The position numbers and the translations under genes were made by a program. A DNA stretch of 64,000 nucleotides from a virus (lineage: Duplodnaviria; Caudoviricetes). Below the pieces are notes generated by a model. That model was not told the origin of the DNA. It worked only from the letters and a program-made list of their open reading frames with translations, and made no database searches. Positions within the stretch are counted from its first letter, which is position 1, and each line of letters opens with the position of its first letter. Location of the stretch: positions 3,399 through 67,398 of the IMG/VR virus record IMGVR_UViG_3300032038_000070. One strand, 5' to 3'. Positions 5,578 through 59,550 of the stretch are shown here, one piece after another.

Positions 5578-5759
5578 GGAGGAAAGAAGATGAGCAAGTT
5601 GAACCAAAGTTTTGCAAACCACTATGTAACGATCGCGACGCTCCTGGAAGAGCAGTCGAAGCTCTTGGAAAGCGACACGAAGCACCGGGAAGCCCGCGAG
5701 GTAATGAAGGAAGGCGCACGCTGCCTGAAGGAGTGCGCAGTCAGATTGGAGGAAGAAGC

Positions 5760-20100: not shown

Positions 20101-20184
20101 CCACAACGAAAGCAGCTGCCCGGGTAAGCTGTGAGTAGCCTCACCCCGGCTGCCGGTTAAGCCGGGGACATTGAGGAGAGAACG

Positions 20185-22161
20185 ATGACTCCGAAGGACA
20201 TTTTGGACATCTCGGAGCCGGTCGAGGAGATCTACCAGAGAACCGTTGACGAGCTCCTGATCAACATCGCGCGACACTTCCAGATCACCGGATGGGAACG
20301 GACGCGCTATTGGGAGATCAAGAAGCTCAGCGAGCTCGGCGCGCTCACGAAGGAGAGCGTCGACATTATCGCGAAGAACACCGGCATGCTGCCGGAGGAG
20401 ATCGAGAGGGCCTTCCTGCAGGTCAGCGAGAAGGCGTGCCTCGACATCGACCCGCAGCTCCGGGCGGCTGCGGAGAAGGGCTTCCTGCAGGATCCCGGAA
20501 CCAGCGCGACGACCTCTCCGGAGATCCGGCGCATGGTGACCGCCTACACCGAACAGGCGGTCGACAAAATGAACATGACAAACACGACGATGCTCGAGTC
20601 GACGCGGCAGGCATACGTCCGCGCCGTCCAGCAGGTCGTGAACGAGGAAGAGCTGCAGGAAGCGAAGCGCATCCTCGAGACGCAGTCCCTCGCCGTTGTG
20701 ACGGGCTCTGAGACCCGTACACGGGCTATCCGGAAGGCGATGGACGATTTGTCGAAGACAGGGCTCGCGGGCTTCTACGACAGCGCAGGGCGCGCCTGGA
20801 GCCCGGAAGCATATGCCGCGATGGTAGTCAGGACGACATCCCACAACGCGGCGATCGAGTCCATCCGGGCGAGGCAGCAGGAGTTCGGCGGCGGCGACGT
20901 CTTCCAGATCAGCGTCCACCCCGGCTCGCGTCCCTTGTGCGCGCCATACCAGGGCGGCCTCTACACATGGGGGCACGGGTCCGGCACGGTCTACGACGGG
21001 GACGGCAAGGCTTATGAGTACGACTCGATCTACAGCACCAGCTACGGCGAGGCCGCGGGGATCTTCGGGATCAACTGCGGACATCACCCGATCCCGTTCA
21101 TCAGCGGCTACAGCTTCCCACAGGACAAGCTGGGGCAGACACCCGAGGAGAACACGAAAGAGTACGAGGAGAGCCAGAAGCAGCGGCAGTATGAGCGTAA
21201 CATTCGGGCGGCAAAACGTGAGCTCGCGATGGCGGAGGCATCCGGAGACAAGGAACGGACCCAGGAGCTGCAGCATAAGGTCAGCCAGGAACAGGCCAAG
21301 ATCCGCAGCTTTATTAAACAGACAGGACGCGCCCGGCGATATGACCGGGAGCAGATCGCGTCGAAGGTCATGCCAGGACTGCCGCCGCAGAGCCTGAAAC
21401 CAGCGGCACCGGCGCCAGCGACACCTGCCCCGAAGACCTTTGAGACCGGGAAGCAAGCGACCGCGTTCTTCGGCGCGCGTCCTGAACGGTCTCTCCGGCG
21501 TGAAAACCACGAGGAGTATGACCGGCAGCGGGCCGCGTATGAGCAGAGCATGTACGGCTCGTGGGTGAACAATCTCAGCGGAGAGCAGACGACCGCGATC
21601 GGAAATTATTCTGGCGATGCATATTCCGGAATCAATGGCCTGCTGCGGCGCGAGATGACAGAGCGGATGGTCGAGGCATGGGACCGGACAGAGAACATGG
21701 GGATCCGGCAGATGATCGGAAACATAGACAGCGCGCTCGAGTCCTTCGAGCTGACCGAGCCCATCCGAGTCTTCCGGACCTGCGACAAGGACGTCCTCGA
21801 GGCTCTGAAGCTGGAATCCGGCGCCACCTTCCGGGACGATGGCTTCGTGTCCACCAGTGTGCTAAGTAAGAAAGTAGCCAGCGGGAACATCGTCATGCAG
21901 ATTGACGTCCCGGCCGGCACCGGCCACGGCGCCTGGATCAACCCTCTCTCGGGAGCGGAGGACGAGGAGTACGAGTTCCTCCTTCCCCGCGGTGCGGAGT
22001 TCCGGATCAATGGCGTCCGGCAATCCGGCGAGGACACGATCGTCGAGATGGAATACCTCGGAAGCAGGAAGGGCGAGATCGAATACGCCACGAAGGAAGA
22101 AGTGGTTGACAGATGGAAGAGGCTCGGAATCTATGACGAAGACAGGGCAAAGCAAATCTGA
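20185..22161 (+). CDS. MuF-type minor capsid protein fused to a C-terminal VIP2/C3-like ADP-ribosyltransferase
   Basis: N-terminal ~390 aa homologous to 57417..58601 (GINCGHHP); C-terminus has YSG..Y..INGLLR, VFR, FVSTS and EYEFLLPRG (R-S-ExE). Confidence 0.88.
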   Translation: MTPKDILDISEPVEEIYQRTVDELLINIARHFQITGWERTRYWEIKKLSELGALTKESVDIIAKNTGMLPEEIERAFLQVSEKACLDIDPQLRAAAEKGFLQDPGTSATTSPEIRRMVTAYTEQAVDKMNMTNTTMLESTRQAYVRAVQQVVNEEELQEAKRILETQSLAVVTGSETRTRAIRKAMDDLSKTGLAGFYDSAGRAWSPEAYAAMVVRTTSHNAAIESIRARQQEFGGGDVFQISVHPGSRPLCAPYQGGLYTWGHGSGTVYDGDGKAYEYDSIYSTSYGEAAGIFGINCGHHPIPFISGYSFPQDKLGQTPEENTKEYEESQKQRQYERNIRAAKRELAMAEASGDKERTQELQHKVSQEQAKIRSFIKQTGRARRYDREQIASKVMPGLPPQSLKPAAPAPATPAPKTFETGKQATAFFGARPERSLRRENHEEYDRQRAAYEQSMYGSWVNNLSGEQTTAIGNYSGDAYSGINGLLRREMTERMVEAWDRTENMGIRQMIGNIDSALESFELTEPIRVFRTCDKDVLEALKLESGATFRDDGFVSTSVLSKKVASGNIVMQIDVPAGTGHGAWINPLSGAEDEEYEFLLPRGAEFRINGVRQSGEDTIVEMEYLGSRKGEIEYATKEEVVDRWKRLGIYDEDRAKQI

Positions 22162-22256
22162 CGAGCTCACACGCGAGCAGGTCAAACAGATGTTGAAGGG
22201 CGACCGGTTCGAATGGATACCCGGAGATCTTGAAAAGATAGAACAGGAGGACAGCG

Positions 22257-22424
22257 ATGGAATGTAAGCACCCGGAGGCGTTCGTCTCCATCAAAAACGG
22301 CCAGCGCGTCTGCGGACTGTGCGGGGCGGTCGTCCCGGCACCTGCAGCGGCTGAACCTGCAGAGAAGAAGCCGGCCGCGAAGGCCGAGCCGAAGAAGGGA
22401 GGAAAGACCAATGCCCGAAAATGA
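22257..22424 (+). CDS. Small Cys/His zinc-finger-like protein
   Basis: MECKHP...VCGLCG; homologue at 58612..58767. Confidence 0.65.
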   Translation: MECKHPEAFVSIKNGQRVCGLCGAVVPAPAAAEPAEKKPAAKAEPKKGGKTNARK

Positions 22425-22626
22425 GATGGAAAAGAAGGACCGGGAGGCATGGGAGGTCAGTGACATGATCCGAAGCGCCGGCGGCATCGTTGAAACAGCT
22501 CTCCGAGCTGAAGACGAGGCATCCCGGAAAGCGCTGCGTGATGCAGCGAAGACGATTCTGCAGCAGGCGATCGCCAGACTGGATGAGAGCGTCGGCGCGT
22601 CCGATGCAGATGAAGAAGACGAATGA
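22411..22626 (+). CDS. Small acidic conserved protein
   Basis: Nearly identical to 58754..58963. Confidence 0.75.
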   Translation: MPENEMEKKDREAWEVSDMIRSAGGIVETALRAEDEASRKALRDAAKTILQQAIARLDESVGASDADEEDE

Positions 22627-22630
22627 TCAG

Positions 22631-22653
22631 GCACCCTGACGGGGTGCTTTTTT
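22631..22653 (+). terminator. Rho-independent terminator
   Basis: GCACCC-TGACG-GGGTGC-TTTTTT. Confidence 0.7.
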
Positions 22654-22732
22654 CATGCAAACAATCGCGGAGTGAAGTCACGCGGTAAAAGACACAGCGC
22701 GGCCGCATCGGGCCGGAAAAGGAGATGGAAAA

Positions 22733-23215
22733 ATGGCACTTTTCAAAAGAGCAGATCTTAAAGCAAAAGGACTCACGGACGAGCAGATCGAGTGGGTCAT
22801 GACCGAAGCCGGGAGGTCCCTGGCGGCGAACTACGTCACCAAAAGCGACAGCGAGGCAGCCGTAGAGGCGGCCAAAGCAGCGCAGGAGGAGCAGGATCCG
22901 ACAAAGTCGGAGGCCTATCTGCAGCTTGCGGCGAAGACCGCGAAGCTGGAGGCGTTTCAGGGCACGGAGTTTGCAGGCGTCAAGGCGCCGTACAAGGACA
23001 TGATCTGGGGACAGCTGGACCACAGCGAAGGACACAAGCCCTACGCGGAACAGCTGACTGCAGTCAAGGAGACAATGCCGGATCTGTTCACAGCAGAACA
23101 GGAAAAAGAAGAACCGCCGCAGAAGCCGCAGTTCGGCGCGCCTACGGAGGGCAGTGTCCCAAAGGGCAACAACGCGCCTAGCTTCGGAGATTTCTGGGGG
23201 TTCGGTAAAGCATAA
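22733..23215 (+). CDS. Capsid scaffolding protein
   Basis: Charged helical protein immediately before the major capsid gene; RBS AAGGAG. Confidence 0.75.
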   Translation: MALFKRADLKAKGLTDEQIEWVMTEAGRSLAANYVTKSDSEAAVEAAKAAQEEQDPTKSEAYLQLAAKTAKLEAFQGTEFAGVKAPYKDMIWGQLDHSEGHKPYAEQLTAVKETMPDLFTAEQEKEEPPQKPQFGAPTEGSVPKGNNAPSFGDFWGFGKA

Positions 23216-23226
23216 GGAGGAAAATT

Positions 23227-24129
23227 ATGCCTTTTACACCCAGCGCAATTAACTATGCAGTCCAGTACGGCCGCGAACTCGCAAACGAGTATCCGTATCT
23301 TTCTTACTTCGGCGACATCTGGGGCAGCCAGAACAGCCGGAGATTCAGACCCATCAACGCGAACAGCATCATGATTCCGTCCATGACGGTCGCAGGCGCT
23401 CATGCGGTCGATCGTAACAACATGAACGGTCAGTTCTCCCGGAAGTTCAACCTGGCCTGGGAGCCGAAGGTCATGACGATGTACAGAGAGTGGGACACCA
23501 TCCTCGATGAGATGGATATTGTTGAGACCAACGAGGTCGCAACAATCGCGAACATCACCAGAACATTCAACGAGTTCCAGAAGATCCCGGAGATGGACGC
23601 CTACATGGCGAAGCAGCTCGGCAGCTTCGCGACTGCAGCCTCCACGGCTGACAGCACCGCCCTCACCGCGGCGAACATCCTCAGCAAGTGGGACGACTAT
23701 CTGGAGGCTATGACGAACGCCCGCGTCAACCGTGACAGAGTGATCTGCTATGTGACGCCCGCGACCTACAAGCTCCTGAAGCAGGCGGCCGGCATCACGC
23801 GCTTCCTGGAAGTCGCGAACGGCATCCAGGCGGTCGACAGGAACATCGCGAAGCTGGACGGCGTCCGCATCGTCGAGGTCCCGAGCGATCTCATGCAGAG
23901 CGCGTACGACTTCACCGACGGCTTCGTCGCGACGGAGGCGGCAAAGCAGATCAACCTGATCATGGTGGATCCGCTGGCGGTCATCGCTCCGGTCGTGTAC
24001 GAGGTCTCCATGATCTCCCCGCCTTCCGCAGCGACCAAGGGCAAGAACGTCTACTATGAGAGCTATTACTATGATGTCTTCAACCTCACACAGAGGACCG
24101 CAGGCATCAGGGCGAACATCGCCGCTTAA
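23227..24129 (+). CDS. Major capsid protein
   Basis: 300 aa, INYA..Y, P.MDAY, KQINLIMVDP; highly similar to 59551..60453. Confidence 0.9.
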   Translation: MPFTPSAINYAVQYGRELANEYPYLSYFGDIWGSQNSRRFRPINANSIMIPSMTVAGAHAVDRNNMNGQFSRKFNLAWEPKVMTMYREWDTILDEMDIVETNEVATIANITRTFNEFQKIPEMDAYMAKQLGSFATAASTADSTALTAANILSKWDDYLEAMTNARVNRDRVICYVTPATYKLLKQAAGITRFLEVANGIQAVDRNIAKLDGVRIVEVPSDLMQSAYDFTDGFVATEAAKQINLIMVDPLAVIAPVVYEVSMISPPSAATKGKNVYYESYYYDVFNLTQRTAGIRANIAA

Positions 24130-24146
24130 TAAGAAGGAGGCAGCCG

Positions 24147-24578
24147 ATGGCGCTCGTCACACTTGAATATTACCAGGACACCTTCCTGGGTGAGTCGATC
24201 GCCGAGGATGACTTCCCGCGGTATGAGCTTAGGGCCGAGGAGCTGATCCTCGGCCTGATCAATAAGACGGAGGAAGAGGCAGAAGCCCTCGAAGAAGACC
24301 TGCCTGCGTGGCTCACGGCAATCCGGAAGGCCATTTGCGCACAGATCGAGTACTTCCTCGAGTACGGAATCGGCGTCGCGGTCTACGGCAAGGAAGCAGG
24401 CGGCGGCTTTACCGTTGGGAAAGTGTCCGTGAACAACGGCAGCGGCTCGGCGGCGGCAGCTGGAGCGCGGTCCATGATCGCGCCGGCAGTCTACACCTAC
24501 CTCGAGCGGACGGGGCTCCTGAATCCGGCGGTGCCGGTCGCGGGAATGCCTCCGCAGTATTGGGGGTGGTTCCTATGA
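24147..24578 (+). CDS. Head-tail connector
   Basis: KAICAQIEY, FTVGKVSV, YLERTGLL; position after the capsid gene. Confidence 0.75.
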   Translation: MALVTLEYYQDTFLGESIAEDDFPRYELRAEELILGLINKTEEEAEALEEDLPAWLTAIRKAICAQIEYFLEYGIGVAVYGKEAGGGFTVGKVSVNNGSGSAAAAGARSMIAPAVYTYLERTGLLNPAVPVAGMPPQYWGWFL

Positions 24579-24961
24579 GTCTCGCACCTATCCCGGCACG
24601 GATGCTGCACGACAAGGTCGTTTTTTCCGTCGTAACTGGCATGGACCGGTACCAGCGGAAAACCTACGCCGAATACACCGTGAACAACGTCCACCTGCAG
24701 TCATCCAACGAGGTCCGCAAAGGACCTAACGATACGGAGGTACAGCTGCGCGGGATCCTTTTCGTCGATGCCCGCCGCTCGCTCCCGGTCCTCGATCTCT
24801 ACGCACTGCAGCAGCAGTCGCTTAAGGCGGGGGACACGATGCGGGCGAAGGTGTACGACGCATCCGGAAACGAGACCGGGGATTATGCGGTCCTCATCAT
24901 TGACGACCTTCCGGATGTCCCGGCAACGCGGCGGCATCATTGGGAACTGGAGCTGGTATGA
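24575..24961 (+). CDS. Head-tail joining / minor capsid protein 1-like
   Basis: A118-like gene order; HHWEL C-terminus. Confidence 0.7.
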   Translation: MSLAPIPARMLHDKVVFSVVTGMDRYQRKTYAEYTVNNVHLQSSNEVRKGPNDTEVQLRGILFVDARRSLPVLDLYALQQQSLKAGDTMRAKVYDASGNETGDYAVLIIDDLPDVPATRRHHWELELV

Positions 24962-25341
24962 GCGTAATCGTAAAGACAGATAAAGCCAAATGGATAGACG
25001 CCATCAACCAGGCTACGGGCAAGGCCGCGTACGCGCTGGCGGAGCAGATGCTCGCAGACAGTGAGAAGTTCGTTCCGCATAGCGCAGGATCCTCGCAGTC
25101 TGCCGGGAACCTTCGGGAATCCGGCAAGGTCGTGCAGGGTGAGACAAGCGGCCGGTTCTATCTGGTATGGGACACGGTTTATGCGCTCTATCAGTGGTTC
25201 GGTGTCAGGGCGGACGGCTCTCATCGAGTGCAGCACTACACGACGCCTGGGACCGGCACGCAGTGGGTCGAGAAGGCCAAGGCGCAGTTATCCGACAGGT
25301 GGCAGAAGATCGCGCAGAAGGAGTTTACAGATGGATTATAA
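24958..25341 (+). CDS. Minor capsid protein 2-like (neck)
   Basis: FVP...GNLRESG, WDTVYA.YQW, TPGTG.QW. Confidence 0.7.
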   Translation: MSVIVKTDKAKWIDAINQATGKAAYALAEQMLADSEKFVPHSAGSSQSAGNLRESGKVVQGETSGRFYLVWDTVYALYQWFGVRADGSHRVQHYTTPGTGTQWVEKAKAQLSDRWQKIAQKEFTDGL

Positions 25342-25747
25342 CCAGTTTTTGTACAGTCCGATTGACAAGCTGATTCAGCGGGTCACGGACCTTGCGGAAA
25401 CGCTTGACCCGTACGCTCCAATCGTGTATGGATCCGATCCGCCGGAGAACGGCATCTGCCTGATCCAGAACGCCGGATACCCGGAAGAGACGCACCTGGA
25501 TAAGGGCTACATCTTCCGCCTGCCGGTGCTGCTGAACGGGAAGCACTCCGATCAGTTCACGGTCCTTGGGACTCTGACGTCGATCCACGAGCTGCTGACC
25601 AAGAAACTAAACTATGCAGACGTGAGCGACGATCAGATCCAGGTGATCAACATCGAGACTACTTCCCTCCCGGCCATCATCGGGCGGGAGCAGAACAATC
25701 AGTGGATCTGCGGATCGTCGTTTGTAATCAGCTTTTATTGGAGGTAA
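25331..25747 (+). CDS. Tail terminator / minor capsid protein 3-like
   Basis: Gene order; homologue at 61651..62046. Confidence 0.65.
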   Translation: MDYNQFLYSPIDKLIQRVTDLAETLDPYAPIVYGSDPPENGICLIQNAGYPEETHLDKGYIFRLPVLLNGKHSDQFTVLGTLTSIHELLTKKLNYADVSDDQIQVINIETTSLPAIIGREQNNQWICGSSFVISFYWR

Positions 25748-25750
25748 GAC

Positions 25751-26242
25751 ATGGGAATCACAAAGACAGATTTCCTCGCGGCGAGCATCCCGGAGATTTC
25801 TCCGATTTACAGCTACACCGCAGAAATTGACACGACACCCGAAGGGCAGTCCAGGACCTGGGCTAAGCTGTGCGCCGGCTTCGAGAACCTCACAGAGGCG
25901 CTCAACGAGCAGGTGCAGCAGTATTTCTTCCTTTGCGGGAACGGCTTCGCCGCGAACTACGTCACCGGAATGGCGCCCACCATGACGCTGTCCGGGCGCA
26001 GGGTCCTTGGCGATGCCGCGCAAGAGTACATCTTCGGCAAAAAGTACGGGCTCATGGCAGAGAGGGAGACCAACTTCCGCCTGACCAGAACGAGCGCGGA
26101 CGGAACCGACACTGCTATTGTCAGCGCACACGTCACACTGTGCAACATGACCGACATCAGCGGAGCAACGACGGAGGGCAGCGCCTGCAGCGTAGAAGTA
26201 CGCTTCGATGGCGAGCCGTTCGTCGGCGATGCCTGGGAATAA
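25751..26242 (+). CDS. Major tail tube protein
   Basis: Position before the tail chaperones; followed by a terminator at 26252-26286. Confidence 0.75.
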   Translation: MGITKTDFLAASIPEISPIYSYTAEIDTTPEGQSRTWAKLCAGFENLTEALNEQVQQYFFLCGNGFAANYVTGMAPTMTLSGRRVLGDAAQEYIFGKKYGLMAERETNFRLTRTSADGTDTAIVSAHVTLCNMTDISGATTEGSACSVEVRFDGEPFVGDAWE

Positions 26243-26300
26243 TAATAAATGGCGGAGGGGCCTTTGCTCCTCCGCTTATTTTTTCATTGGGGGTAAACAC

Positions 26301-26699
26301 ATGTACAAGATCAAGAGAAGCAGACACATCGTAGAGAACCTGCAGATTGAAGACGGCGGCAAGGTCCTTGATCTGGCCGTGGACATCATCATTGACGACA
26401 TCATGAAGCAATACATCGACCTCGGGAGCCGTCTGGCTAAGCTGCAGGGGATGATCGACGCGGGAGAGAAGAGCGAGGATCTGTATGCCGAATATGGCAA
26501 GACCATCGTCGCGTACTTCGAGCTGTTTTTTGGTACGGAACAGACCGCAAGGATCCTGAACTTCTACAACAACCGATACAGCGAGATGCTCCTGGATGTC
26601 ACGCCGTTCCTGCAGGATGTCGTCGTTCCCGCGATCATTAAGGCGCAGGAGGACACAAAGAACAAGTACAAGGCGATGGCCAAGAGAAGGTACAGATGA
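26301..26699 (+). CDS. Tail assembly chaperone
   Basis: Position; homologue at 62641..63039. Confidence 0.7.
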   Translation: MYKIKRSRHIVENLQIEDGGKVLDLAVDIIIDDIMKQYIDLGSRLAKLQGMIDAGEKSEDLYAEYGKTIVAYFELFFGTEQTARILNFYNNRYSEMLLDVTPFLQDVVVPAIIKAQEDTKNKYKAMAKRRYR

Positions 26700-27265
26700 G
26701 ACCGCACGAGCGTCTCCCCGAGTCGGTAACGTACAAGGGGAAACGGTACCGGCTGGATATGTCATATGTCGCCTTTTTTACCGTTTCCGCGCTGATGCAG
26801 GACAAATCCGTGCTGGACTATGTGAAGGTGGACGGCGCGCTGGACATCCTTGTGAGGGGAAGACATCCAGTGGATCCCGAGCTTTTGTCTGCGATCTATG
26901 ACCTCATCAAGGAGGATCGGCCACGATCTGGATCCGATCAGAAACTGATGGACATAGAACAGGATTGGAGCTATATCTGTGCGGCTTTCCAGCAGGCATA
27001 CGGGATCGACTTGTACAAAGACCGGAAGATGCACATCATCCGCTTCCGATCGCTCCTGCAGGCACTGCCAAAGGACACCCGGATGTCTGAGATCATCGGA
27101 ATCCGCGCGGCGGAGATCCCGGCGCCCACAAAGTACAACCGGGAACGGATCGCAGAGCTGACGCGTCTCAAGGCTCAATATGCGCTGAGGGGCGGTGAGG
27201 ACTCGCTGCAGGACGGCTTCGCAAAGTTGTTTGCATTATTGAAAGCGAGGGCAAAAAATGCCTGA
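26696..27265 (+). CDS. Phage Gp15-like tail assembly protein
   Basis: LP.SV.Y.G..Y, DW.YI.AAF.Q.YGIDL, F..LL..LP..T..SEI.GIR. Confidence 0.8.
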   Translation: MRPHERLPESVTYKGKRYRLDMSYVAFFTVSALMQDKSVLDYVKVDGALDILVRGRHPVDPELLSAIYDLIKEDRPRSGSDQKLMDIEQDWSYICAAFQQAYGIDLYKDRKMHIIRFRSLLQALPKDTRMSEIIGIRAAEIPAPTKYNRERIAELTRLKAQYALRGGEDSLQDGFAKLFALLKARAKNA

Positions 27266-29504
27266 TGTTGGAAGTGTAAAATACAAGGTCGAGCTAGACG
27301 ACAGCCAGCTCGATCAGGACATATCGAAAACTGAATCCGACATATCCTCCAAACTTGGCTCCATCAGCAGCACCCTGAACAAGCAGTTTGGTTACCAGAT
27401 ATTCAAAGACGTAGGTGGAGCAGTCGTAGAGGCTGGGAAGGCGATGGTCGGCTTCGCAGCAGACTCCGTACAGACCGGGGTGACCTTCGACAAGAGCATG
27501 GCGCAGGTCGCAGCCACAATGGGGCTGACCGTTGACGAGATTGGAGAGCTGCGCGACTTCGCACAGGAGATGGGCGCGTCCACAGCGTTCTCCGCGTCAC
27601 AGGCAGCGGATGCGCTGAATTACATGGCTCTCGCCGGGTACGACGCAGAGACAGCCATGAGCATGATGCCGAACGTCCTCAATCTCGCGGCAGCAGGCGA
27701 CATCGATCTCGCCAGAGCTTCCGACATGGTAACGGATGCAAGCTCCGCACTCGGACTGTCCTTGGAAGAGACGAGCGTCATGGTCGACCAGATGGCCAAG
27801 GCCTCGTCCAAGTCGAACACGAGCGTAGCTCAGCTTGGAGACGCGATCCTCACCGTTGGTGGTACCGCTAAGAATATGGCCGGTGGGACGACAGAGCTGT
27901 CCACAGCGCTCGGCATCATGGCCGACAGCGGCATCAAGGGAGCGGAAGCAGGAACCCACATGAGGAACATCCTGCTCGCGCTGAATCCTACGACGAAAGA
28001 TGCGAAAGAGGCATTCGAGGAGTTAGGAATCAATGCCTACGACGCGGAAGGCAACCTTCGGCCACTTAACGATACGTTCTCTGAGATGGCCGTTCGCTTG
28101 GCAGATTTCGACTCGCAGGGAAGGACAGATATACTGTCCAAGATGTTCAACAAGACTGACCTGTCTGCTGTAGATGCGTTGCTCACAGCAGCGACCTACG
28201 ACATGGACGGCCTTAAAGAGGCAGTTGGTCAGCTTGGCATCAACTGGGAGAATGTCCGCGTCATTACGAAAGACTGGGGTCTTTCAGCCGAAGAAGGAAT
28301 GGAGCACATCGTCAGAACTACTGAGAACTGGATTCTCAGCGGTTCAACGATGGAGCAAACACTTGGCCTGCTGAGAGAATCCTACGGCATGACACAGGAG
28401 GACGCAGTCGCCCTATTTGAGACTGTTTCCGCAGAGCTCGACAAGCAAGGAAACCGTTGGACGGAGCTGTCCGGGTACATCGACGACGCAGCCGGTTCTG
28501 CACAGAAAATGGCCGACACGCAGCTCGATAACCTCGCAGGCGACATTACACTGATGCAGTCTGCTCTTGAGGGTGTCAAGATCGCTATCAGCGATTCTCT
28601 TACACCTACACTGAGGGAGTTCGTCCAGTTCGGTGGTGACGCACTCGGACAGCTCGCGGAAGCCTTCAAAGAGGGAGGCCTCAGCGGAGCGGTCGATGCC
28701 TTCGGCCAGATACTCAGCGACGGCATCGCGCTCATCGTAAGCAAGGCACCAGACCTCGTAAAGGCCGGGATGCAGCTCATTGAGTCCCTCGGAGGAGGAC
28801 TCCTCGACAACCTGCCTGTCATTCTGGACGCAGCGCTTGAGGTTTTACTCACCCTTGTAGATGGGCTCATCGACAACATTCCGAAGCTCCTAGACGCAGC
28901 CATCAAGCTCATCACAGGGCTCGCCAAGTTCATTGCAGACAACGCAGACACAATTACCGAGAAGGGCGTCGAGCTCATTGCAGCTCTGGTCAAAGGGCTT
29001 ATACTCGCAGTCCCGGACATCATAAGGGCTATCCCGACGCTCATCAGAGCGATTTGGGAAACCTTCACAAACTTCAACTGGCTCAGCCTCGGCGTAGACA
29101 TCATCAGAGGTATTGCACGAGGAATCGCAGGAGCAGCAGGAGAGATTGCAAACGCAGCGAGAGAGGCAGCGAGCAACGCACTGAACGCGGCGAAGAGCTT
29201 TCTTGGTATCCACAGCCCTTCAAAACGAGCAGCAGAGGAGATTGGTGAGCCGTACTCAGAAGGTGTCGCGGAAGGTATTGACAGCGGCATGGACGAGATA
29301 GACAAGAGCGTCGAGCTGATGGGCAGGACGCTTACGGCAGACGTAGCCCTCCCGGACGTGAGCGGATGGGCAGGAAGCCTCGGAGCAGCATTCAACGCGA
29401 GCAGCAGCACAGCCATCACGGTCGTGTCTGAACTCGACGGCAGAGAGATTGCCAGAGGCACGGCATGGTACATGAACGAGCAGCTCGCATGGGAGGCAAG
29501 ATAA
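27258..29504 (+). CDS. Tape measure protein (TP901-like core repeat)
   Basis: FDKSMAQV.AT, A.ALNYMALAG, GIKG.EAGT..RN, Ala-rich amphipathic repeats. Confidence 0.92.
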   Translation: MPDVGSVKYKVELDDSQLDQDISKTESDISSKLGSISSTLNKQFGYQIFKDVGGAVVEAGKAMVGFAADSVQTGVTFDKSMAQVAATMGLTVDEIGELRDFAQEMGASTAFSASQAADALNYMALAGYDAETAMSMMPNVLNLAAAGDIDLARASDMVTDASSALGLSLEETSVMVDQMAKASSKSNTSVAQLGDAILTVGGTAKNMAGGTTELSTALGIMADSGIKGAEAGTHMRNILLALNPTTKDAKEAFEELGINAYDAEGNLRPLNDTFSEMAVRLADFDSQGRTDILSKMFNKTDLSAVDALLTAATYDMDGLKEAVGQLGINWENVRVITKDWGLSAEEGMEHIVRTTENWILSGSTMEQTLGLLRESYGMTQEDAVALFETVSAELDKQGNRWTELSGYIDDAAGSAQKMADTQLDNLAGDITLMQSALEGVKIAISDSLTPTLREFVQFGGDALGQLAEAFKEGGLSGAVDAFGQILSDGIALIVSKAPDLVKAGMQLIESLGGGLLDNLPVILDAALEVLLTLVDGLIDNIPKLLDAAIKLITGLAKFIADNADTITEKGVELIAALVKGLILAVPDIIRAIPTLIRAIWETFTNFNWLSLGVDIIRGIARGIAGAAGEIANAAREAASNALNAAKSFLGIHSPSKRAAEEIGEPYSEGVAEGIDSGMDEIDKSVELMGRTLTADVALPDVSGWAGSLGAAFNASSSTAITVVSELDGREIARGTAWYMNEQLAWEAR

Positions 29505-30208: not shown

Positions 30209-32104
30209 ATGCTTACTCTTTACCACAACGGGCAGCAGTTGCCCATACAGGACACAGAATACTACGTCCGGGAGCTCGCGAGCGGCCTAGACGAAGTAAT
30301 CTTCAACCTGTCTATATATGACCCGATTTACGCTGCCTTGCAGGAAGAGGAGCAGATCACTGACCGGGGAGGACAGCGATACCTCGTAAAGCAGATAGAC
30401 GCAGGAGCGAACAGCGCGAAAGTAATCTGTCAGATAGACCTTGACGCTTGGAAAGCCGATATGTACGAGGAGTACACGAACGGATCCGCGACGGTCTACA
30501 GCACGATAGACGGCATCAAGCCGACAGGGTGGACGGTACTTGATAGAGCCGGCATCAACATCCGCAGGACGATAAAAGGAGCATACACTCCTCTACAGAT
30601 ATGCGAGGTGTGTCGTGACACGTACAAAGTATACCTCCGTTGGGATACCCTAGCGAGAACCTGCACCATCTTCCCTATGTCTCTTAGAGCTCCGGCAGGC
30701 TCCTTTGCTACGAGGGAGCTGAACCTCAAGGAAATCAACTACAAAGGCAAGTCCACGGACTTCATCACGAGACTGTACGCGTTCGGAGCAAAGGATGATG
30801 CAGGAAAACCGATGTCACTGATGAATCAGCGTATCGGTGGACAAGTATATCCATACAAATATGTGGATAACTTTTCCTACTCCAACAAGATTATATGCGG
30901 ATATTGGATAGACGAGCGGTACACAGACCCGGCAAGCCTCTATGATGATGCAGTCGCCAAGCTTGCTGTGATGGCACAGCCTTCCCGGTCGTACTCTTGC
31001 AGCGTCGTAGACCTACAGGCGACAAACCCGGAAGTCTACAACAATCTGGATTTCAGCCTGTTCACGACAGTCACGCTGATAGATGACATCAAGGAAACGG
31101 CAGTCAACTACCAAGTTGTCGAGCGACACGCTTACCCTTATCACCCGGAGCTGAACGAGATCATGCTCGACAGCGCTCCTGCCCGAATAACATCTCAGAT
31201 AGTTAGAATCGCGGACAGTATCGAAAATCCATCGAGCGCTTTTCAGCAGATACTCGACATTCGAGCGCAGCAGGCCACAAACTGGCTCCTCTCTGGAGAC
31301 GGCTATGTCGTAGCAGTACAGGACGAAGACGGCTCTTGGAAAGAACTCCTCTTCCTCGATACACCAGACATCTCAACAGCGCAGAAGGTGCTGAGGATTA
31401 ACGAGAACGGCATTGGCTTCTCGACGACAGGAGCAAACGGTCCATATACTAACGCATGGACGATAGACGGACAGCTTGTCGCAGATTTCATCACGACCGG
31501 GACACTTACCGCCAACGTGATGCGAGCAGGAACCATCCGCGATCTTGCCGGGAAAAACTGGTGGAACCTCGACACAGGTGAAATTCAGATAAGTGCCGAA
31601 GCAGTTGTCGATACCTCCGAGTTTGTCACGCAAGCCCAATTTACAGCCGCCGCAGACCGTATTGCGTCAGAGGTTGTGGAGCAAGTTGGGTCTGGCATCT
31701 TTTACAACGTAGTCCCGACAGACAACGGCAACGGAACGGTCACACTGCAAGCCCATGTGTACCTTAACAGGAACGATGCTACACAGACATTTAGTCAGTA
31801 CTTCTTCCAGTGGTATAAGAAAACCGAGGACAGCAAGGACTTCATTGGGTACGGCTATGAAATCACCGTAACAAAGACCGAATATGGTTACGGTGGTGAG
31901 GTAGAGGGGACTTTCCTCATGTTAGAGGACAGATACCCTGTCAACAGTCAAGGTAGATGGGTATTCACACAAAACGGCAGTTATTTCACTCTTGCCACGT
32001 CACAGGGGGAATTGCTGTTTGCTCAAGGGCATCCGATGGTGCTGTCAGAAGCGCAGACCTCTGGAAATGTATACCCCGTGTTTGGGTACGATTATTACGA
32101 ATAG
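30209..32104 (+). CDS. Tail endopeptidase/Tal-like baseplate protein
   Basis: NLKEINY...TRLYA.G, LFTTVTLID, R.NENGIGFS.TG.NGPY..AWTIDG. Confidence 0.75.
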   Translation: MLTLYHNGQQLPIQDTEYYVRELASGLDEVIFNLSIYDPIYAALQEEEQITDRGGQRYLVKQIDAGANSAKVICQIDLDAWKADMYEEYTNGSATVYSTIDGIKPTGWTVLDRAGINIRRTIKGAYTPLQICEVCRDTYKVYLRWDTLARTCTIFPMSLRAPAGSFATRELNLKEINYKGKSTDFITRLYAFGAKDDAGKPMSLMNQRIGGQVYPYKYVDNFSYSNKIICGYWIDERYTDPASLYDDAVAKLAVMAQPSRSYSCSVVDLQATNPEVYNNLDFSLFTTVTLIDDIKETAVNYQVVERHAYPYHPELNEIMLDSAPARITSQIVRIADSIENPSSAFQQILDIRAQQATNWLLSGDGYVVAVQDEDGSWKELLFLDTPDISTAQKVLRINENGIGFSTTGANGPYTNAWTIDGQLVADFITTGTLTANVMRAGTIRDLAGKNWWNLDTGEIQISAEAVVDTSEFVTQAQFTAAADRIASEVVEQVGSGIFYNVVPTDNGNGTVTLQAHVYLNRNDATQTFSQYFFQWYKKTEDSKDFIGYGYEITVTKTEYGYGGEVEGTFLMLEDRYPVNSQGRWVFTQNGSYFTLATSQGELLFAQGHPMVLSEAQTSGNVYPVFGYDYYE

Positions 32105-32113: not shown

Positions 32114-32722
32114 ATGGCAGATGTATATGTAAACGCACTAACCACAATCAGCACTGAACCGACCACAACGGACAGCTTGGTTGCGGTCAACAGGAACACC
32201 AACGAGGGCAAAATAATTGATTACAATTTACTTGCTGATGCTATCCTCAACAAGATTGCAAGCAAGCAGTTTTCAAGTCTGGACACAACAAGCAAGCTGT
32301 TGGTTGGGGCAATCAACGAACTGGATTCAGACATTGCCTCACAGGCGGCTGAAATTAGTTCGTTAAATAGCAGTTTAACGCCTATTTCTTATACAGGATA
32401 TTCCATTGTTGGGTATAGTTCCACCGACCCTACTCTGAGCTATGTATATATAGTCGGGAAGATATGTATATACTCTCTGGCGTTTAAGGGCGGCACATCT
32501 GAAACAACACCCGGACATACAGAGACATTTGTGACAGGGATGCCGAAACCATTGCATGATTCCTATGGTAATGGAATGTCATTTAATGGTAACATAACAC
32601 AAAATTTTAGGTACAGAGTCACATCAAGCGGTGATACAGGAATTATTACAAATTATTATTCTGGTGTGCGCGTTTATGTGGGTAACCCCGTAATAATGAC
32701 TGGTGCATATATTATCGCCTAA
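32114..32722 (+). CDS. Tail fibre / receptor-binding protein, expressed C-terminal variant
   Basis: Helical N-terminus (LDTTSK.LVGAINEL), SSLNS recombination site at aa 82-86, then a beta-rich tip. Confidence 0.75.
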   Translation: MADVYVNALTTISTEPTTTDSLVAVNRNTNEGKIIDYNLLADAILNKIASKQFSSLDTTSKLLVGAINELDSDIASQAAEISSLNSSLTPISYTGYSIVGYSSTDPTLSYVYIVGKICIYSLAFKGGTSETTPGHTETFVTGMPKPLHDSYGNGMSFNGNITQNFRYRVTSSGDTGIITNYYSGVRVYVGNPVIMTGAYIIA

Positions 32723-33076
32723 TAGCATGGCATGATAGAAGCACTGCGACTTTTCGTCAAAGACGGAATTGGCGAAACTGCTAGATAAAAAACTAATCTG
32801 CGATTGCCACCCATACACCTTCTGGCGGACGATATTCGCTTTGGTTTGCAATTAGCCAAAACGAAAACTCGGTTGCGCTGATTGCGTTGACTCTATAAAA
32901 ATAAGTACGGTATCCATTACCGCCTGCAGTCTGCATAATAACCCGCGGAACATTGCTGAACGGAGTTGGAAATGTGACCGTTATAACATCTGACATATAA
33001 TTACCGCCCGCGCTTGCTGTTCCTGTTGTTGCGGCAGGCATTAATCCTGTTTGTATTCTGCTATTTAACGAACTAA
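32355..33076. mobile_element. Invertible tail-fibre segment bounded by 19-bp inverted repeats
   Basis: TTAGTTCGTTAAATAGCAG at 32355-32373 and its exact reverse complement at 33058-33076. Confidence 0.85.
32793..33076 (-). CDS. Silent alternative tail-fibre C-terminus (88 aa after SSLNS; H-lectin/gp53-like)
   Basis: Minus strand reads SSLNS-RIQTGLMPAATT...VTFPTPFSNVPRV...FSFWL in frame from the repeat; no RBS of its own. Confidence 0.8.
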
Positions 33077-33103: not shown

Positions 33104-34153
33104 ATGAGATTTGCCCAAGAAATTTCTATATTCAATCCATATGCGATTGCAGACGCTCTCATTGATATGGGTACCACAATCACCCAGACCGCTGAGGAGA
33201 TACGCCTAGAAGCGGCGGCAACGTATGCCACGCAGACAGGACTGCAAACGCTGTCCTCAAGGGTTAGCCAGACGGCAACGGCAATCAGCTTCACACTGTC
33301 CAAAAACGGAGACAGGACGGCACAACTGTCCATGTCCTACACTAAAGAGGACGGCAGTGTGATACAGTTAGCCGCTCAGAGCGTACAGTTTACTGGACTT
33401 GTGACGTTCACGGACTTGTCTGGCACTGGTACCACAATCAACGGCGGGAACATCACAACAGGCACACTGAGCGGTGACCGCATCAACGGCGGCACCATTA
33501 CAGGCTCAACAATCAGCGGCGGCACTCTGATTGCACAGGGGACTGCGGCAGGGGATGTTGTAATCGGCAATGGACAGGTACACGTACCATATTTACGATT
33601 TGTCAAGGACGGCAACGACATCGGTGGCATACTAACTGACTTCACATGGGATGATAACCCGAGCGGCAAACGCCTGTGGACAGGTCACGGGCTTCATGTC
33701 ACAGCAGAGGAAGATGAGTGGTTTACCTGTGACACATCTGCAAGGTTTACAGGAAACGTGTATAACTCCTCTGGATATGTTCAATTTGTTTCTGACCGCC
33801 GCAAGAAAAATGATATTGAGGTTCTGAAAGACGGATACAACACCATCATGAACCTTGTGCCTGTGTCATTCCGATTGAAAGAACACCCAGAGACAAAACA
33901 CCATGGATTCATTGCCCAGATGGTACAGGAAATTGTCAAAGATGACTGGGGCATTGTTGGAGAAATGCCAGAGGGAGACAGTACAACGCTTACACTGTCA
34001 TACACAGAACTGATTGCAGACCTTGTTGGAGCAGTCCAGACGCTAGACAAACGTATTAATCAGTTTGACTGCCTTGACACATTAGGCGAGATTGTCGAAC
34101 TGGTACACAAGCAGAATGAGCGCATTGCAAAACTGGAGGCACAACATGGATAA
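33104..34153 (+). CDS. Tail spike/fibre protein with C-terminal S74-type intramolecular chaperone
   Basis: I.GG.I.G repeats; SDRRKKNDI, GFIAQ, LSYTELIA.LV.AVQ. Confidence 0.8.
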   Translation: MRFAQEISIFNPYAIADALIDMGTTITQTAEEIRLEAAATYATQTGLQTLSSRVSQTATAISFTLSKNGDRTAQLSMSYTKEDGSVIQLAAQSVQFTGLVTFTDLSGTGTTINGGNITTGTLSGDRINGGTITGSTISGGTLIAQGTAAGDVVIGNGQVHVPYLRFVKDGNDIGGILTDFTWDDNPSGKRLWTGHGLHVTAEEDEWFTCDTSARFTGNVYNSSGYVQFVSDRRKKNDIEVLKDGYNTIMNLVPVSFRLKEHPETKHHGFIAQMVQEIVKDDWGIVGEMPEGDSTTLTLSYTELIADLVGAVQTLDKRINQFDCLDTLGEIVELVHKQNERIAKLEAQHG

Positions 34154-35076: not shown

Positions 35077-35264
35077 ATGGAGAATTTTGGCGTGCGGCAC
35101 TTATCCGCGCAGTGAGGACTGCGGCACAGACTGCCATTGCAAGCATCGGCACCACGGCAGTCATATATGAAGTTGATTGGGTCACGGTACTGGGTACAAC
35201 AGCCCTTGCAACGCTCCTGTCATTTCTGACCTCCGTTGCAACAGGCCTTCCGGAGGTAGAGTGA
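35073..35264 (+). CDS. Holin (r1t-like)
   Basis: AA.IRAVRT.AQTAIA, VDW..V, LS.LTSVA.GLPE. Confidence 0.85.
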   Translation: MNGEFWRAALIRAVRTAAQTAIASIGTTAVIYEVDWVTVLGTTALATLLSFLTSVATGLPEVE

Positions 35265-35998
35265 TGGTACGCATCGCGCAGGCCTCGAAGGATGAGAGGA
35301 GCCGGTACACCGGAGGACAAGCCGGTAACCAGAGCGGCAGCGAGCTAAATATACGAGAATGGTACAGCAGGCCGTGGGATACCGTCTTACGACCGAAAAC
35401 ACCAGAGCTCGCACAGAGTGTCGTGAGTGTGTCGCTGAGGCTCGTGAAATGTACGCTGATAGGTTACGACCAGAATCAGCGAACAACACTGTACGACCAG
35501 TGCCAGAGGATCGGATGGGACATCAACCGGCTGAACGAGATACAGCCGTGCGAGTGCGATTGCAGCAGCCTTATTGCAGTCATCCTGCGGTTCTGCGGCA
35601 TCAGCATCCCGAAGACGGTCTACACCGGGAATCTTACGAGCTATGTTCTGGCTACAGGCAAGTTTATCTGCCTCAGAGACCCGAAGTACCTCACCGGGGA
35701 CGCGTACATCAAGGCAGGAGACATCTTGCTGAACACAGCACACCATGTTGCGGTCGCTGTTGACACCGGAGCGAAGGCACTCAGCTCGACATTCACACCG
35801 TACGCAGCAGTTGTCGACGTGAGTTCTTTCCTTAATGTAAGGGAGGGCCCCGGTACGTGGTACCCGGTCTTCAAGGTGAGCGGCACAGATTTCAGATTGC
35901 CCAATGGACTCGTAGTTGCTATCATAGAGGAGGTAGACGGATGGGGAAGGCTCTCAAACTTGGATGGTTGGGTGTCGCTGTCGTACTTGCAGCGGTAG
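35264..35998 (+). CDS. Endolysin B (paralogue of 1144..1902)
   Basis: CECDCSSLI, HHVAV, C-terminal LNVREGPGT...GWVSL. Confidence 0.88.
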   Translation: MVRIAQASKDERSRYTGGQAGNQSGSELNIREWYSRPWDTVLRPKTPELAQSVVSVSLRLVKCTLIGYDQNQRTTLYDQCQRIGWDINRLNEIQPCECDCSSLIAVILRFCGISIPKTVYTGNLTSYVLATGKFICLRDPKYLTGDAYIKAGDILLNTAHHVAVAVDTGAKALSSTFTPYAAVVDVSSFLNVREGPGTWYPVFKVSGTDFRLPNGLVVAIIEEVDGWGRLSNLDGWVSLSYLQR

Positions 35999-36058: not shown

Positions 36059-36486
36059 ACAATTTCCTACAATTTCAAATTGTACCCCAATACAATTAGA
36101 TTGCGTACGATTTAACGGTATGCGTTTTCCCTGTAATTACAGCATTTTGTCTTAAAAAATTTTGTGGAACAAGTAACCACTGAGGTCACAAAAGTGTCTG
36201 AGTGTCCGAAACTGTGCAAATTTACATCAGCGCAGAATTTTTGAATAACTCCACACAATTCAATAGACTATAATAGTTCATACAATTTCACACAATATCC
36301 AGGTACCCGGTCATACAATTCAATTTTGTACGATTTAACGTTGTGCGAAATCCCTGTAATTCTAGGCTTTTGTCCCAAAATTTTTTGTGGAACAAGTGAC
36401 CACCCCCATCATGAATCTGTCTGAGTGTCCAAAACTGTCCGTTTTTTGGTCAGCGTAAAATAAGCAGATAACTACAGACAATTTAC
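36059..36486. repeat. Two tandem copies (223-bp period) of a ~200 bp non-coding element; third copy at 52502
   Basis: Shared blocks TTTTGTGGAACAAGT (36160, 36383) and TGTCTGAGTGTCC (36195, 36418). Confidence 0.85.
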
Positions 36487-36525: not shown

Positions 36526-36772
36526 TTGCAACACGGCTTGCAACACGAAGGCTCACGGGTCAGCTAAAATCAACGTGTTTCGGACGAGGATTCGGGTTCG
36601 ATTCCCGCTGCCTGCAGTTGAAGAAATCCCAGTGTTTTCAAGGTCTACAGACTTTGAGCACTGGGATTTTTGTCGTCTACACGACACGTTCTGACGCAGG
36701 AGCGACAAGGCGTGTCAGTCGCTTGCAACATGATTTTGCAACACGGCCTCGCCGTTCACATCTTGCAACACG
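36526..36772. other. attP of the tyrosine integrase: tRNA 3'-end core flanked by arm-type repeats
   Basis: Core CGGG-TTCGATT-CCCG-CTGCCTGC-A (36593-36616); TTGCAACAYG at 36526, 36538, 36723, 36736 and 36763. Confidence 0.8.
36624..36672. terminator. Stem-loop next to the att core (likely terminator)
   Basis: AAATCCCAGTG...CACTGGGATTT with flanking A/T tracts. Confidence 0.6.
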
Positions 36773-37776
36773 TTACCAAACACATCATTAATTTTCTCCT
36801 CCATCACCTTCTGTTCGGAATCCAGAGTATGACGGTACACGCGGTTCATCGTGTAGGACGTTGCCCATCCTCCCCGGGACATGATGTAAGCATCCGGGAT
36901 GCCGGCAGCGTGAGCGATAGACACGAAGGCATGACGCAGGTCGTGGAAGCGGAAGGTCGGGATGTCGTTCGCCTCAAGGAGCGCATGGAAGCGTTTAGAG
37001 ATCGTCCCGACAGAGAGCCGGGTGACGTAGCCCTGTTTCCGGATCAAGTCCGCAAGGAATGCCGGGAGAAGGATATGCCTGTTCGACTCGTCTGTCTTCG
37101 GATAATCCTTGATGGTCTGCCTGCCCTTCACGTCGACGACAGCAGCCCGGTGGACGTAGAGGACATTATCATCCCCAAGGTCTTTGATAGACGCAGCCAC
37201 GATCTCACCGCGACGCATAGGTGCAAGCGCAGCGAGCAGTACCGGCACCTCCATGTTCGTACCTTTTATAATTTGATAAAGGCGCTTCATCACCTCGGCA
37301 TCCGGGATGTTCATCTCTGGCCGGGAGAGCTTCGGCAGCGTCGGAGCGTGAGGCTCGTATCCGTTGTAGTTTAATACCGCATTAACAAGGTAGAAACAGT
37401 TCCGCACCGTTTTAGCGGACAAATCCTCGGCCAGAACATTGACTGCTCGCTGAAGGGCTTTAGTGTCTATTTCGTACAGCCTCATTTTAAGCAGCTCCGG
37501 GTAGTACGCAGCCAGAGACGACCGGATCGTGGTGTATCCCCGGATAGTGGACGGAGAGAGCACCGGTGTCTTTATCTTGATGTAATCGTTGATGGCCTTC
37601 TTCAGAATTAAAGAAGAAGTTTTCTCCCGGGAGAGCGTTGTGGAGAATTTCAGAGCCTCGAGCTGCGCGAGCTCCTTGGTCTCAGCCAAGAAGGACTTGT
37701 ACATCCGCTTCCCTTTTTCGTTGTACCCAACAAAGACCTGTGCTCTCCACATCCCGGAGGGGAGCTGAGTAGGCAT
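36715..37776 (-). CDS. int: Tyrosine integrase of phage B
   Basis: MRRGEI, FRFHDLRH, RGGW...M..VYRH catalytic R/H-x-x-R/Y; likely start MPTQ with a GGAGG RBS. Confidence 0.95.
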   Translation of the reverse strand: MPTQLPSGMWRAQVFVGYNEKGKRMYKSFLAETKELAQLEALKFSTTLSREKTSSLILKKAINDYIKIKTPVLSPSTIRGYTTIRSSLAAYYPELLKMRLYEIDTKALQRAVNVLAEDLSAKTVRNCFYLVNAVLNYNGYEPHAPTLPKLSRPEMNIPDAEVMKRLYQIIKGTNMEVPVLLAALAPMRRGEIVAASIKDLGDDNVLYVHRAAVVDVKGRQTIKDYPKTDESNRHILLPAFLADLIRKQGYVTRLSVGTISKRFHALLEANDIPTFRFHDLRHAFVSIAHAAGIPDAYIMSRGGWATSYTMNRVYRHTLDSEQKVMEEKINDVFGNVLQDVNGEAVLQNHVASD

Positions 37777-37777
37777 C

Positions 37778-38395
37778 TTACACCTCCCTCCTAATTTCAA
37801 CTACCTTCCCGGCAATGGTGACCGGGAGCTTCATTATTTCCTCATTCGTAAAGACCATCGGGTCGTACGCAGGATTCAGCGAGACAAGCGTAACCCCGGA
37901 GGTCGTCTTCTTGAGCTTCTTACAGCAGCCGTCGCAGCCGTTCACGATGGCAATTACCACATCCCCGGTCTCAGCATCATTCTGCTGCTTCACGACCACA
38001 ACATCCCCATCCATTATAAAAGGAGACATCGAGTCGCCTTTGATTTTGAGAGCGAAGAACTCACCGGTAGCCGCGAGCTTCCGAGAGATTTCTTCCTGCC
38101 CGATTATGTTCTCGACAGCAGAGATCGGTATGCCGGCAGCAACGCGGCCTAGCAGAGGAATCATCACTCCGTTAGACGCAGGAGGCATCTCCGCAGCTTC
38201 TCCCATTAGGAAGGAAGGAGTAACTCCCAGATAATCAGCAATCATCGACAGCCTTTTCGCGGAGGGAGTAGACCCTCGCTTCTGAGTGTTGTTCACATAT
38301 CCGTTTCCAAGACCAAGCGTAGTTTCGAGCTTCATCACAGTTATTCCGCGATCCTTGCAGAGAGCGCGAACCCTATCAGCAAATCCTTCCATCAT
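37778..38395 (-). CDS. LexA-like CI repressor (HTH plus S24 autopeptidase)
   Basis: PLLGRVAAG cleavage site, GDSM, CKKL. Confidence 0.93.
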   Translation of the reverse strand: MMEGFADRVRALCKDRGITVMKLETTLGLGNGYVNNTQKRGSTPSAKRLSMIADYLGVTPSFLMGEAAEMPPASNGVMIPLLGRVAAGIPISAVENIIGQEEISRKLAATGEFFALKIKGDSMSPFIMDGDVVVVKQQNDAETGDVVIAIVNGCDGCCKKLKKTTSGVTLVSLNPAYDPMVFTNEEIMKLPVTIAGKVVEIRREV

Positions 38396-52498: not shown

Positions 52499-52501
52499 GA
52501 A

Positions 52502-52703
52502 ACAATTTCCTACAATTTCCGATTACCACTAACTACGATTCAATTTTGTGCGATTTAGTTTTGTGCGTTTTCCCTGTAAATAAAGGATTTTGTTCCCAGT
52601 GATTTCTTAGGGGAAACGACCATCGAGGTCATGAAAATCCGAGAATGTCCAAAACTGTCCATTTTCGGTCAGCGCAGAATAGTTGCACAATTTACGACAA
52701 TTT
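52502..52703. repeat. Third copy of the ~200 bp non-coding element
   Basis: ACAATTTCCTACAATTTC (same as 36059), TGCGTTTTCCCTGTAA (same as 36121), TGTCCAAAACTGTCC (same as 36426), TCAGCGCAGAAT (same as 36227). Confidence 0.85.
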
Positions 52704-57328: not shown

Positions 57329-57416
57329 CCGCCATTTTTGGGATTCCTTCCTTAAGACCTCCTAGCGGAAAGCTGATTAAAGGCGCGTCACAAGCGCCGG
57401 GAGGTTTTCTACAGAC

Positions 57417-58601: not shown

Positions 58602-58611
58602 GGAGGCAGAT

Positions 58612-58963: not shown

Positions 58964-59064
58964 GCACCTAACAAGGTGCTTTTTTCATACCCAAAAATAC
59001 GCGAGCACCGGTCGTTACGGGGTGCAATTCGCTAATCGTCAATAGCGTAAAAGGAGGACGTAAA

Positions 59065-59538: not shown

Positions 59539-59550
59539 GAGGACTAAATT

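Follow-up and report, generated by a model that had tools for sequence, protein, structure and literature searches.

The closest described systems invert DNA with enzymes of two families. In phages Mu, P1 and p15B, the small serine invertases Gin, Cin and Min act at gix- and cix-type sites with the help of a Fis-dependent enhancer, and the invertase gene lies adjacent. The R64 shufflon is served by a tyrosine recombinase, Rci, whose asymmetric sites carry a 19-bp repeat, with one arm and the core conserved and the other arm variable. Tail-fibre genes are known to undergo programmed inversion as a class (PMC9881135). The Rin shufflon of Bifidobacterium breve and B. longum prophages combines constant and variable parts of a receptor-binding protein (RBP) at 11-bp sites (Mavrich et al. 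2018, PMC6109161); Rin itself is an Xer-like tyrosine invertase distinct from the phage integrase (PMC6109161), and the shufflon has also been reported in Eggerthella lenta prophages (PMC8778435). A second inverted locus was described in the tRNA-Met-integrated bifidophages 689b-1 and Bb423phi2, in which a structural gene exchanges its 3' end when ~500 bp are inverted. No recombinase flanks this locus, and the authors proposed an invertase acting in trans (PMC6109161).

Here, we analysed a 64-kb stretch of viral DNA (the window; bases 3399-67398 of a 67.4-kb IMG/VR record), in which positions 32355-33076 form a module with two cassettes that switches the tip of a receptor-binding-type tail protein in a siphophage. 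Switches of this kind are already known, and a recombinase-less tail inversion served in trans has already been proposed by Mavrich et al. 2018 (PMC6109161); the most useful contributions of the present comparison are the recurrence of an orphan, recombinase-less state and a plausible route to it. By analogy, we claim that the family to which the module belongs works like the Rin shufflon, a likeness of working and not of orthology. In both, a siphophage tail module holds an RBP gene whose constant N-terminal part can be followed in frame by one or another C-terminal cassette, the crossover site, short and asymmetric, lies at the junction and before each cassette, and an armless Xer-like tyrosine recombinase (here encoded by relatives of the window) is distinct from the integrase. 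The family differs from Rin in its core (TAAATAGCAG here versus the 11-bp rix sequence TTCCCTAACCC, as quoted in PMC6109161) and in occurring in Firmicutes-type gut and rumen phages, with a constant protein unmatched in GenBank phages; moreover, the window's copy has two cassettes and no recombinase gene. As with Gin, Cin and Min, inversion would swap the C-terminal part of a tail protein and change host range, but the window's family has no associated serine invertase. From its description, R64/Rci resembles the present system in its asymmetric one-arm-plus-core site and 19-bp repeat, although it is a plasmid system that varies the PilV adhesin. In the literature searched, we found no paper on the Firmicutes-type family.

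Judging from its neighbours, the switch gene occupies the receptor-binding position of a siphophage tail. Upstream lie genes for the tape measure and Dit and, directly before the switch, a Tal-type distal tail protein (30209-32104, plus strand; Pfam Prophage_tail, E 2e-22); the next gene after the switch encodes a tail fibre with an S74 intramolecular chaperone domain (33104-34153, plus strand; Pfam Peptidase_S74, E 1e-11; PHROG tail fibre), and holin and endolysin genes lie downstream. The record consists of phage units in series: the last part of a first unit, with a lysin at 1144-1902, is followed by unit A, which extends from a large serine recombinase (1894-3423) to a lysin at 35177-35998, and unit B starts with a tyrosine integrase (36715-37800) and an S24 repressor. 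The structural genes of units A and B share ~73% nucleotide identity (17234-27660 versus 54462-64000), and the contig end cuts unit B at the tape measure, so that its tail end is missing. The three head-to-tail units may represent a tandem polylysogen or a chimeric assembly. A non-coding element of ~200 bp is present in tandem between lysin A and integrase B (36059-36260 and 36282-36483) and a third time in unit B (52499-52680); the copies are 70-73% identical, and no function was found for the element.

A repeat search of the window revealed two arms complementary at 19/19 positions (32355-32373, plus strand; 33058-33076, minus strand). Because they enclose 684 nt, the invertible segment measures 722 bp, in agreement with the coordinates of an earlier note on this DNA, which had also recognised that the repeat encodes SSLNS in frame on both strands. 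On the plus strand, a 202-aa ORF (32114-32722) starts with a constant, Rc-like N-terminal part (32114-32354; ~130 homologues), continues through the left recombination site as S82-S-L-N-S86 and ends with the 116-aa C-terminus and stop codon of the expressed tip A (32374-32722; GC 0.40). On the minus strand, in the same frame, the right site encodes SSLNS and leads into the silent tip B, 88 aa that end with a stop codon at 32793-32795 (32793-33057); this right site is located directly upstream of the ribosome-binding site of the next gene. The two-state architecture proposed before, in which the 116-aa tip is exchanged for the silent 88-aa tip, is supported. A low-confidence model of the constant part places the end of a long helix at the junction. 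Both the 19-mer and its 10-bp core TAAATAGCAG occur at only two places in the 64-kb window, with no attP-like further copy of the core, and none of 100 shuffles (0/100) contained two matches to the 19-mer.

The only ATG in the silent frame (33041) falls 3' of the first conserved beta-strand of the encoded domain, so the cassette is built for reading from the junction. No promoter-like site was found upstream of the silent frame on the minus strand. A degenerate third site (32778-32796, minus strand), in direct orientation to the right site and matching it at 15/19 positions, abuts the silent tip's stop codon and overlaps it; matches of at least 14/19, a threshold set one match looser than observed, occurred in 3% of 2000 shuffles of the ~1-kb region.

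Tip A has no Pfam or PHROG match and no homologue among 120 family members, and the model of the full-length 202-aa protein was left out of the fold searches because it was poor (pLDDT 57). Tip B, described before as H-lectin- or gp53-like, scores below the cut-offs of both Pfam families concerned (Gp53-like_C, PF21882: E 1.6e-4, 22.6 bits, cut-off 24.9; H_lectin, PF09458: E 1e-3, 19.6 bits, cut-off 24), and the description is borne out by its predicted structure. Its AF2 model (pLDDT 94, pTM 0.81) matched the Helix pomatia and H. aspersa agglutinins best in Foldseek (TM 0.62-0.67, with 0.64-0.67 for H. pomatia; probability 1.00, E 2e-3), followed by the tailspike C-terminal domains of phages AP22, phi297 and LKA1. 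Homologues of tip B, ~50% identical from end to end, form the C-terminal domains of other tail proteins, and the invariant residues are kept. The model thus shows an intact H-type lectin beta-sandwich fold. GC content of the tips is 0.40-0.46, compared to 0.56 in the tape-measure gene. No longer protein bearing the silent tip, as expected for a flipped fusion, was found in a set of 5.8 billion proteins, which is weak evidence.

Searching with the N-terminal 87 aa returned 133 proteins whose first ~80 residues are conserved and whose C-termini (about 65-200 aa) are mutually unrelated from the SSLNS junction on. The constant part is 94% identical to that of a second viral contig of 30.4 kb (G001), which has the same exact 19-mer inverted pair in a homologous gene around two other in-frame tips, showing that the repeat is not due to chance. 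Homology between the window and four relatives (G001, L098, L121 and L122) ends at the left site and resumes at the right site (33054-33060), and a metagenome contig from another study tracks the window to 32377 and diverges beyond. A 15-mer of the left site, TTCGTTAAATAGCAG, is identical in the left sites of two recombinase-bearing relatives (L105 and L011). The right site recurs as a 17-19-mer at the same place in G001, L098, L121 and L122 between unrelated flanks, and is kept as TTAGTTCGTTAAAT(A/G)GC in non-coding DNA of five recombinase-less relatives. These comparisons refute the reading of the repeat as a coincidence or by-product of shared coding sequence, with the minus-strand ORF as an ordinary small gene, to which we assign next to no probability. 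An 82-aa ORF starting at ATG 33041 is called as a gene in a public set (P0121), yet the conserved domain starts before this ATG, and the shuffles, the G001 pair around other cassettes, the family-wide architecture and the inversions observed in relatives (below) all speak against such a reading.

The 19-mer had only two single, chance-like matches in species-representative genomes, both in cyanobacterial MAGs, a 14-mer scan of viral contigs gave only single chance matches, and GenBank phages contained neither a DNA match to the region nor a protein match to the constant N-terminus. The constant domain was present in 1/401 (order) and 2/401 (family) representative genomes; the one clear host match, in a Ruminococcus genome, is a single-tip form. 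The family is a large, unannotated and widespread set of gut and rumen phage shufflons of Firmicutes type.

The alignments also bear on the structure of the site. The earlier note had read the left site as a dyad, CGTTAAA-TAGCAG-TTTAACG, and used it as an argument for the type of enzyme. The dyad is present at the window's left site, but neither the right site of the window nor the left site of G001, L105 or L011 contains its right half; the dyad was therefore rejected as a functional site and does not serve as an argument for enzyme type. One arm plus the core is conserved, an asymmetric arrangement like that of Rin and Rci. Separately, the right site of L098 happens to form a near-perfect dyad with 13-bp arms (TTAGTTCGTTAAA-TGGCAG-ATTAACGAACGAA, minus strand), which directly follows the stop codon (6590-6625).

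Relatives with an in-locus enzyme identify the recombinase type. In L011, whose N-terminus is 72% identical, a gene for a tyrosine recombinase of 333 aa comes after the tail gene and precedes a silent tip on the minus strand, with its in-frame beginning at TCA CTA AAT AGC AG, and a close-clade relative found on 21 contigs (P0026) has the same layout. When every ORF of the fetched loci was compared with the L011 recombinase by jackhmmer, ~30 loci proved to encode a homologue 0.03-1.6 kb 3' of the tail gene, whereas the window and G001 encode none. The family recombinase scores above the cut-off of NCBIfam NF040815 (XerA/integron-integrase type) and below those of the XerC and XerD models, and consists of SAM_4 and catalytic domains only, with no arm-binding domain. 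Because ~30 related loci carry this Xer-like recombinase, the site can be assigned to a tyrosine recombinase rather than a Hin/Gin-type enzyme, as had been argued before. In the recombinase-bearing loci of the close clade, the recombinase gene alone is enclosed by another perfect inverted repeat, CTTGCTCTTTAATTAAGTA (L011, 5642-5661 / 6807-6826; L105, about 4520-4540 / 5720-5740). This repeat lies directly 3' of both tips' stop codons and has no sequence relation to the junction site.

That no invertase gene flanks the segment, as reported previously, was confirmed for the entire 67-kb record, which lacks the family recombinase and holds only two recombinases. One is a 509-aa large serine recombinase (1894-3423, minus strand; Resolvase, Recombinase and Zn_ribbon_recom domains) ~29 kb upstream of the segment, the integrase of unit A and the only PF00239 match in the record. 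The other, 3.6 kb downstream, is the integrase-type tyrosine recombinase of unit B (36715-37800, minus strand; Pfam Phage_integrase), followed by the S24 repressor; neither is the invertase. The 3.4 kb that precede the window in the record contain no tyrosine recombinase and no second family copy, and carry a different fibre type. A Hin/Gin/Cin-type serine invertase supplied in trans would correspond to the classical mechanism of tail-fibre switching in phages Mu, P1 and p15B (PMC6109161), but is very improbable here: no small serine invertase lies next to the segment or elsewhere in the record, G001 has neither a resolvase-family gene nor a small serine invertase, and every relative with an in-locus enzyme encodes a tyrosine recombinase.

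An enzyme with another main job, be it the phage's own large serine integrase, the neighbouring tyrosine integrase or host XerC/D, would be suggested by the lack of other recombinases nearby and by the Xer-like nature of the family invertase itself. Against this, the sites are unchanged in G001 and L098 although these have another set of integrases, G001 being without a serine recombinase, and a complete relative encodes both an integrase of the same family as the window's (38% identity) and a separate family recombinase. In addition, the core has no attP-like second copy in the window, the family recombinase is unrelated to the integrase-type enzymes of the window (E 7.5) and G001, and in the single host genome that was found, no Xer protein comes closer to the invertase than 28% identity. 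Of the candidates for action in trans named in the earlier note, the phage integrase and the host's Xer enzymes are thus disfavoured, and we regard such dual use as improbable.

Inversions in the family can be observed directly among relatives. Two human-gut assemblies of a distant locus (L029 and L034) share flanks of 4.2 kb upstream and 1.6 kb downstream at 100% identity; the difference between them lies in three adjacent segments, each inverted in place (4198-6578), whose borders overlap by 13-19 nt at four sites with CAAAATAGTGA-type cores. Segment 1 is a tail-to-tail tip pair like the window's module, with different tips expressed in the two assemblies, segment 2 contains the recombinase gene, and segment 3 is a further tip pair; the locus is a four-tip shufflon with three independently inverted segments. 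As the identical flanks enclose in-place inversions at the sites, this comparison demonstrates that the family flips in nature. Likewise, the recombinase segment is flipped between L053 and L089, and other phages express tips that are 74% identical to silent ones of L105 and L011, with the same joining residue. In L013, a 196-bp perfect inverted repeat (1278-1473 / 4229-4424) spans the constant N-terminal coding part and reaches the contig end; this is probably an assembler fold-back at an invertible segment and a sign of mixed orientations in the sample.

While many relatives encode the recombinase, it is absent from 22 of the 52 loci with at least 1.2 kb of downstream sequence. In one group of recombinase-less loci, whose close-clade members are P0002, P0012, P0013, P0014, P0018 and P0023, a single tip is present and the fibre gene comes directly next. 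The other group has two tips arranged tail to tail with intact in-frame silent cassettes, and comprises at least six lineages including the window (the others being G001, L025, L043, L079 and L071/L022). Two of these have records devoid of any tyrosine recombinase: L079 (37.5 kb, 89% complete) and L071 (19.3 kb, 51% complete). L071 aligns with the recombinase-bearing L059 except for 1.77 kb located between two direct sites in L059, and carries a hybrid of these two sites, as a site-specific deletion would leave behind; integration of a circle, the reverse event, would give the same pattern. Because the two loci are only ~85% identical, we infer this loss rather than report it as an observed event. 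In the window, the position of the silent tip between a perfect right site and a degenerate direct copy fits a similar deletion history. The borrowed catalysis suggested in the earlier note is not a designed feature of the switch: the recombinase-less state looks like a secondary loss, and the distant L071 matches a site-specific deletion. The switch appears to lose its enzyme repeatedly, and at least one of these losses matches a deletion of the kind that the enzyme itself carries out.

Based on these comparisons, we propose that the window's copy is a derivative left after the recombinase-bearing part of a larger shufflon was lost. An Xer-like tyrosine recombinase lacking an arm-binding domain would exchange strands at the core TAAATAGCAG within the 19-bp repeat, with the core lying in frame where the constant N-terminal helix ends, and an inverted copy before each silent tip. 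Inversion would replace the 116-aa tip by the silent 88-aa H-type-lectin tip, and the receptor bound by the phage would change. As its own recombinase gene is absent, the module would flip only with a cognate recombinase from elsewhere, for which a co-resident related phage is the most plausible source; a possible helper is the related unit B, in tandem on the same contig with its tail end cut off. Cross-recognition by a relative's recombinase is an assumption of this model, since in L105 and L011, the closest two relatives with a recombinase, the right sites share just 16 and 10 bp, respectively, with the window's site. Overall, we consider it slightly more probable than not that the module can be flipped when a family recombinase is present in the same cell and is otherwise locked. 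The anatomy of the module, its place in the family, the recombinase type and the inversions of relatives, and the lectin fold are shown; that this copy is still a substrate, and what supplies the enzyme, we infer.

A possible but less than even alternative is that the module is a frozen relic, a shufflon descendant that has not inverted since the recombinase was lost and whose silent tip and right site are leftovers that will decay. Reads are in line with this reading as far as they go. Six runs held part of the stretch (at best 42% of its words), four of which gave ~3x contigs that leave the right junction without cover. At the left junction, a bovine-gut run shows the reference orientation, likewise at ~3x, and at this depth no flipped form of the element was seen. 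The lack of a family recombinase in the record, the already degenerate third site (32778-32796) and the plain single-tip genes of most close relatives point in the same direction. Moreover, the two sites of single-tip relatives no longer match in the core, which shows that site pairs in this clade do decay once the recombinase is lost. In the closest single-tip relative, L098, the lone tip lies between inverted sites, and inversion would truncate the protein.

In contrast to the mismatched pairs of single-tip relatives, the pairs of the two-tip forms are perfect over 19 bp in the window and 24 bp in G001 (19/19 and 24/24), two independent recombinase-less phages whose flanks are only 75-87% identical. 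Together with the intact silent tips in at least six recombinase-less lineages and the right site conserved in non-coding DNA of five relatives, this argues against a frozen relic. The recurrence of recombinase-less two-tip loci, the conservation of the right site, the perfect pairs and the breaks in homology at both sites are evidence, at the level of sequence, that the sites are still under selection, and the left-site 15-mer shared with the recombinase-bearing L105 and L011 also speaks for continued use. However, if the recombinase was lost only recently, the repeats could still be perfect and the silent frame intact with no further use of the switch.

The reading we prefer, a module flipped in trans by a family recombinase, has a precedent in the 689b-1 and Bb423phi2 locus, which likewise combines a short-repeat inversion that swaps the 3' end of a structural gene with the absence of a flanking recombinase. 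The bifidophage locus differs in its 8-bp site and in a gene whose function is unknown, and no recombinase-bearing relatives of it have been described, whereas the relatives of the window identify the enzyme family and suggest how its gene was lost. If orphan modules are flipped in trans, phage host range would depend on co-resident prophages. More generally, tip-switching shufflons allow temperate gut phages to hedge between receptors, and they shape both the choice of strains open to infection and the stability of phage-host pairs in gut and rumen.

Going further, recombinase-less two-tip modules might form a maintained, helper-dependent class whose tips are mobile, site-flanked cassettes exchanged between phages as circles, a reading that we consider unlikely as it stands. 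The proposed exchange, with circles excised and integrated at two sites, can be likened to integron cassettes or recombinase-mediated cassette exchange. Hints in this direction are the breaks in homology at both sites, the silent tip flanked by direct sites and the difference between L071 and L059, to which the conservation of the right site even in single-tip phages and the GC content of the tips below that of the phage may be added. If such exchange takes place, the host range of orphan modules would be re-set only in cells that also hold a recombinase-bearing relative.

Small genes of this 'integrase' type within tail modules are routinely mis-annotated, as are the adjacent minus-strand ORFs that lack a start. 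In the cultured Terrisporobacter phage TPELB_ph1 (PP197244.1), CDS0023, annotated as an 'integrase', is 33% identical to the family recombinase and belongs to the tail module, where its neighbours are a 577-aa protein on one side and a small ORF of the minus strand on the other; a separate integrase is encoded elsewhere. The tail protein is a different one, and CDS0023 has not been annotated or studied as an invertase; from its layout, an Xer-like 'integrase' beside a 52-aa minus-strand ORF (L238, 17645-18804), the locus is likely an unrecognised tip switch in a cultured phage. Within the window itself, direct repeats of TTAAATAACAC are present at 296-445, the first at the stop codon of the 745-aa tail protein of the upstream unit and the second 133 bp further on. 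They flank a start-less 41-aa frame beginning with LNN, and their core resembles the TAAATAGCAG site, so that this region could be a cassette remnant of a related system.
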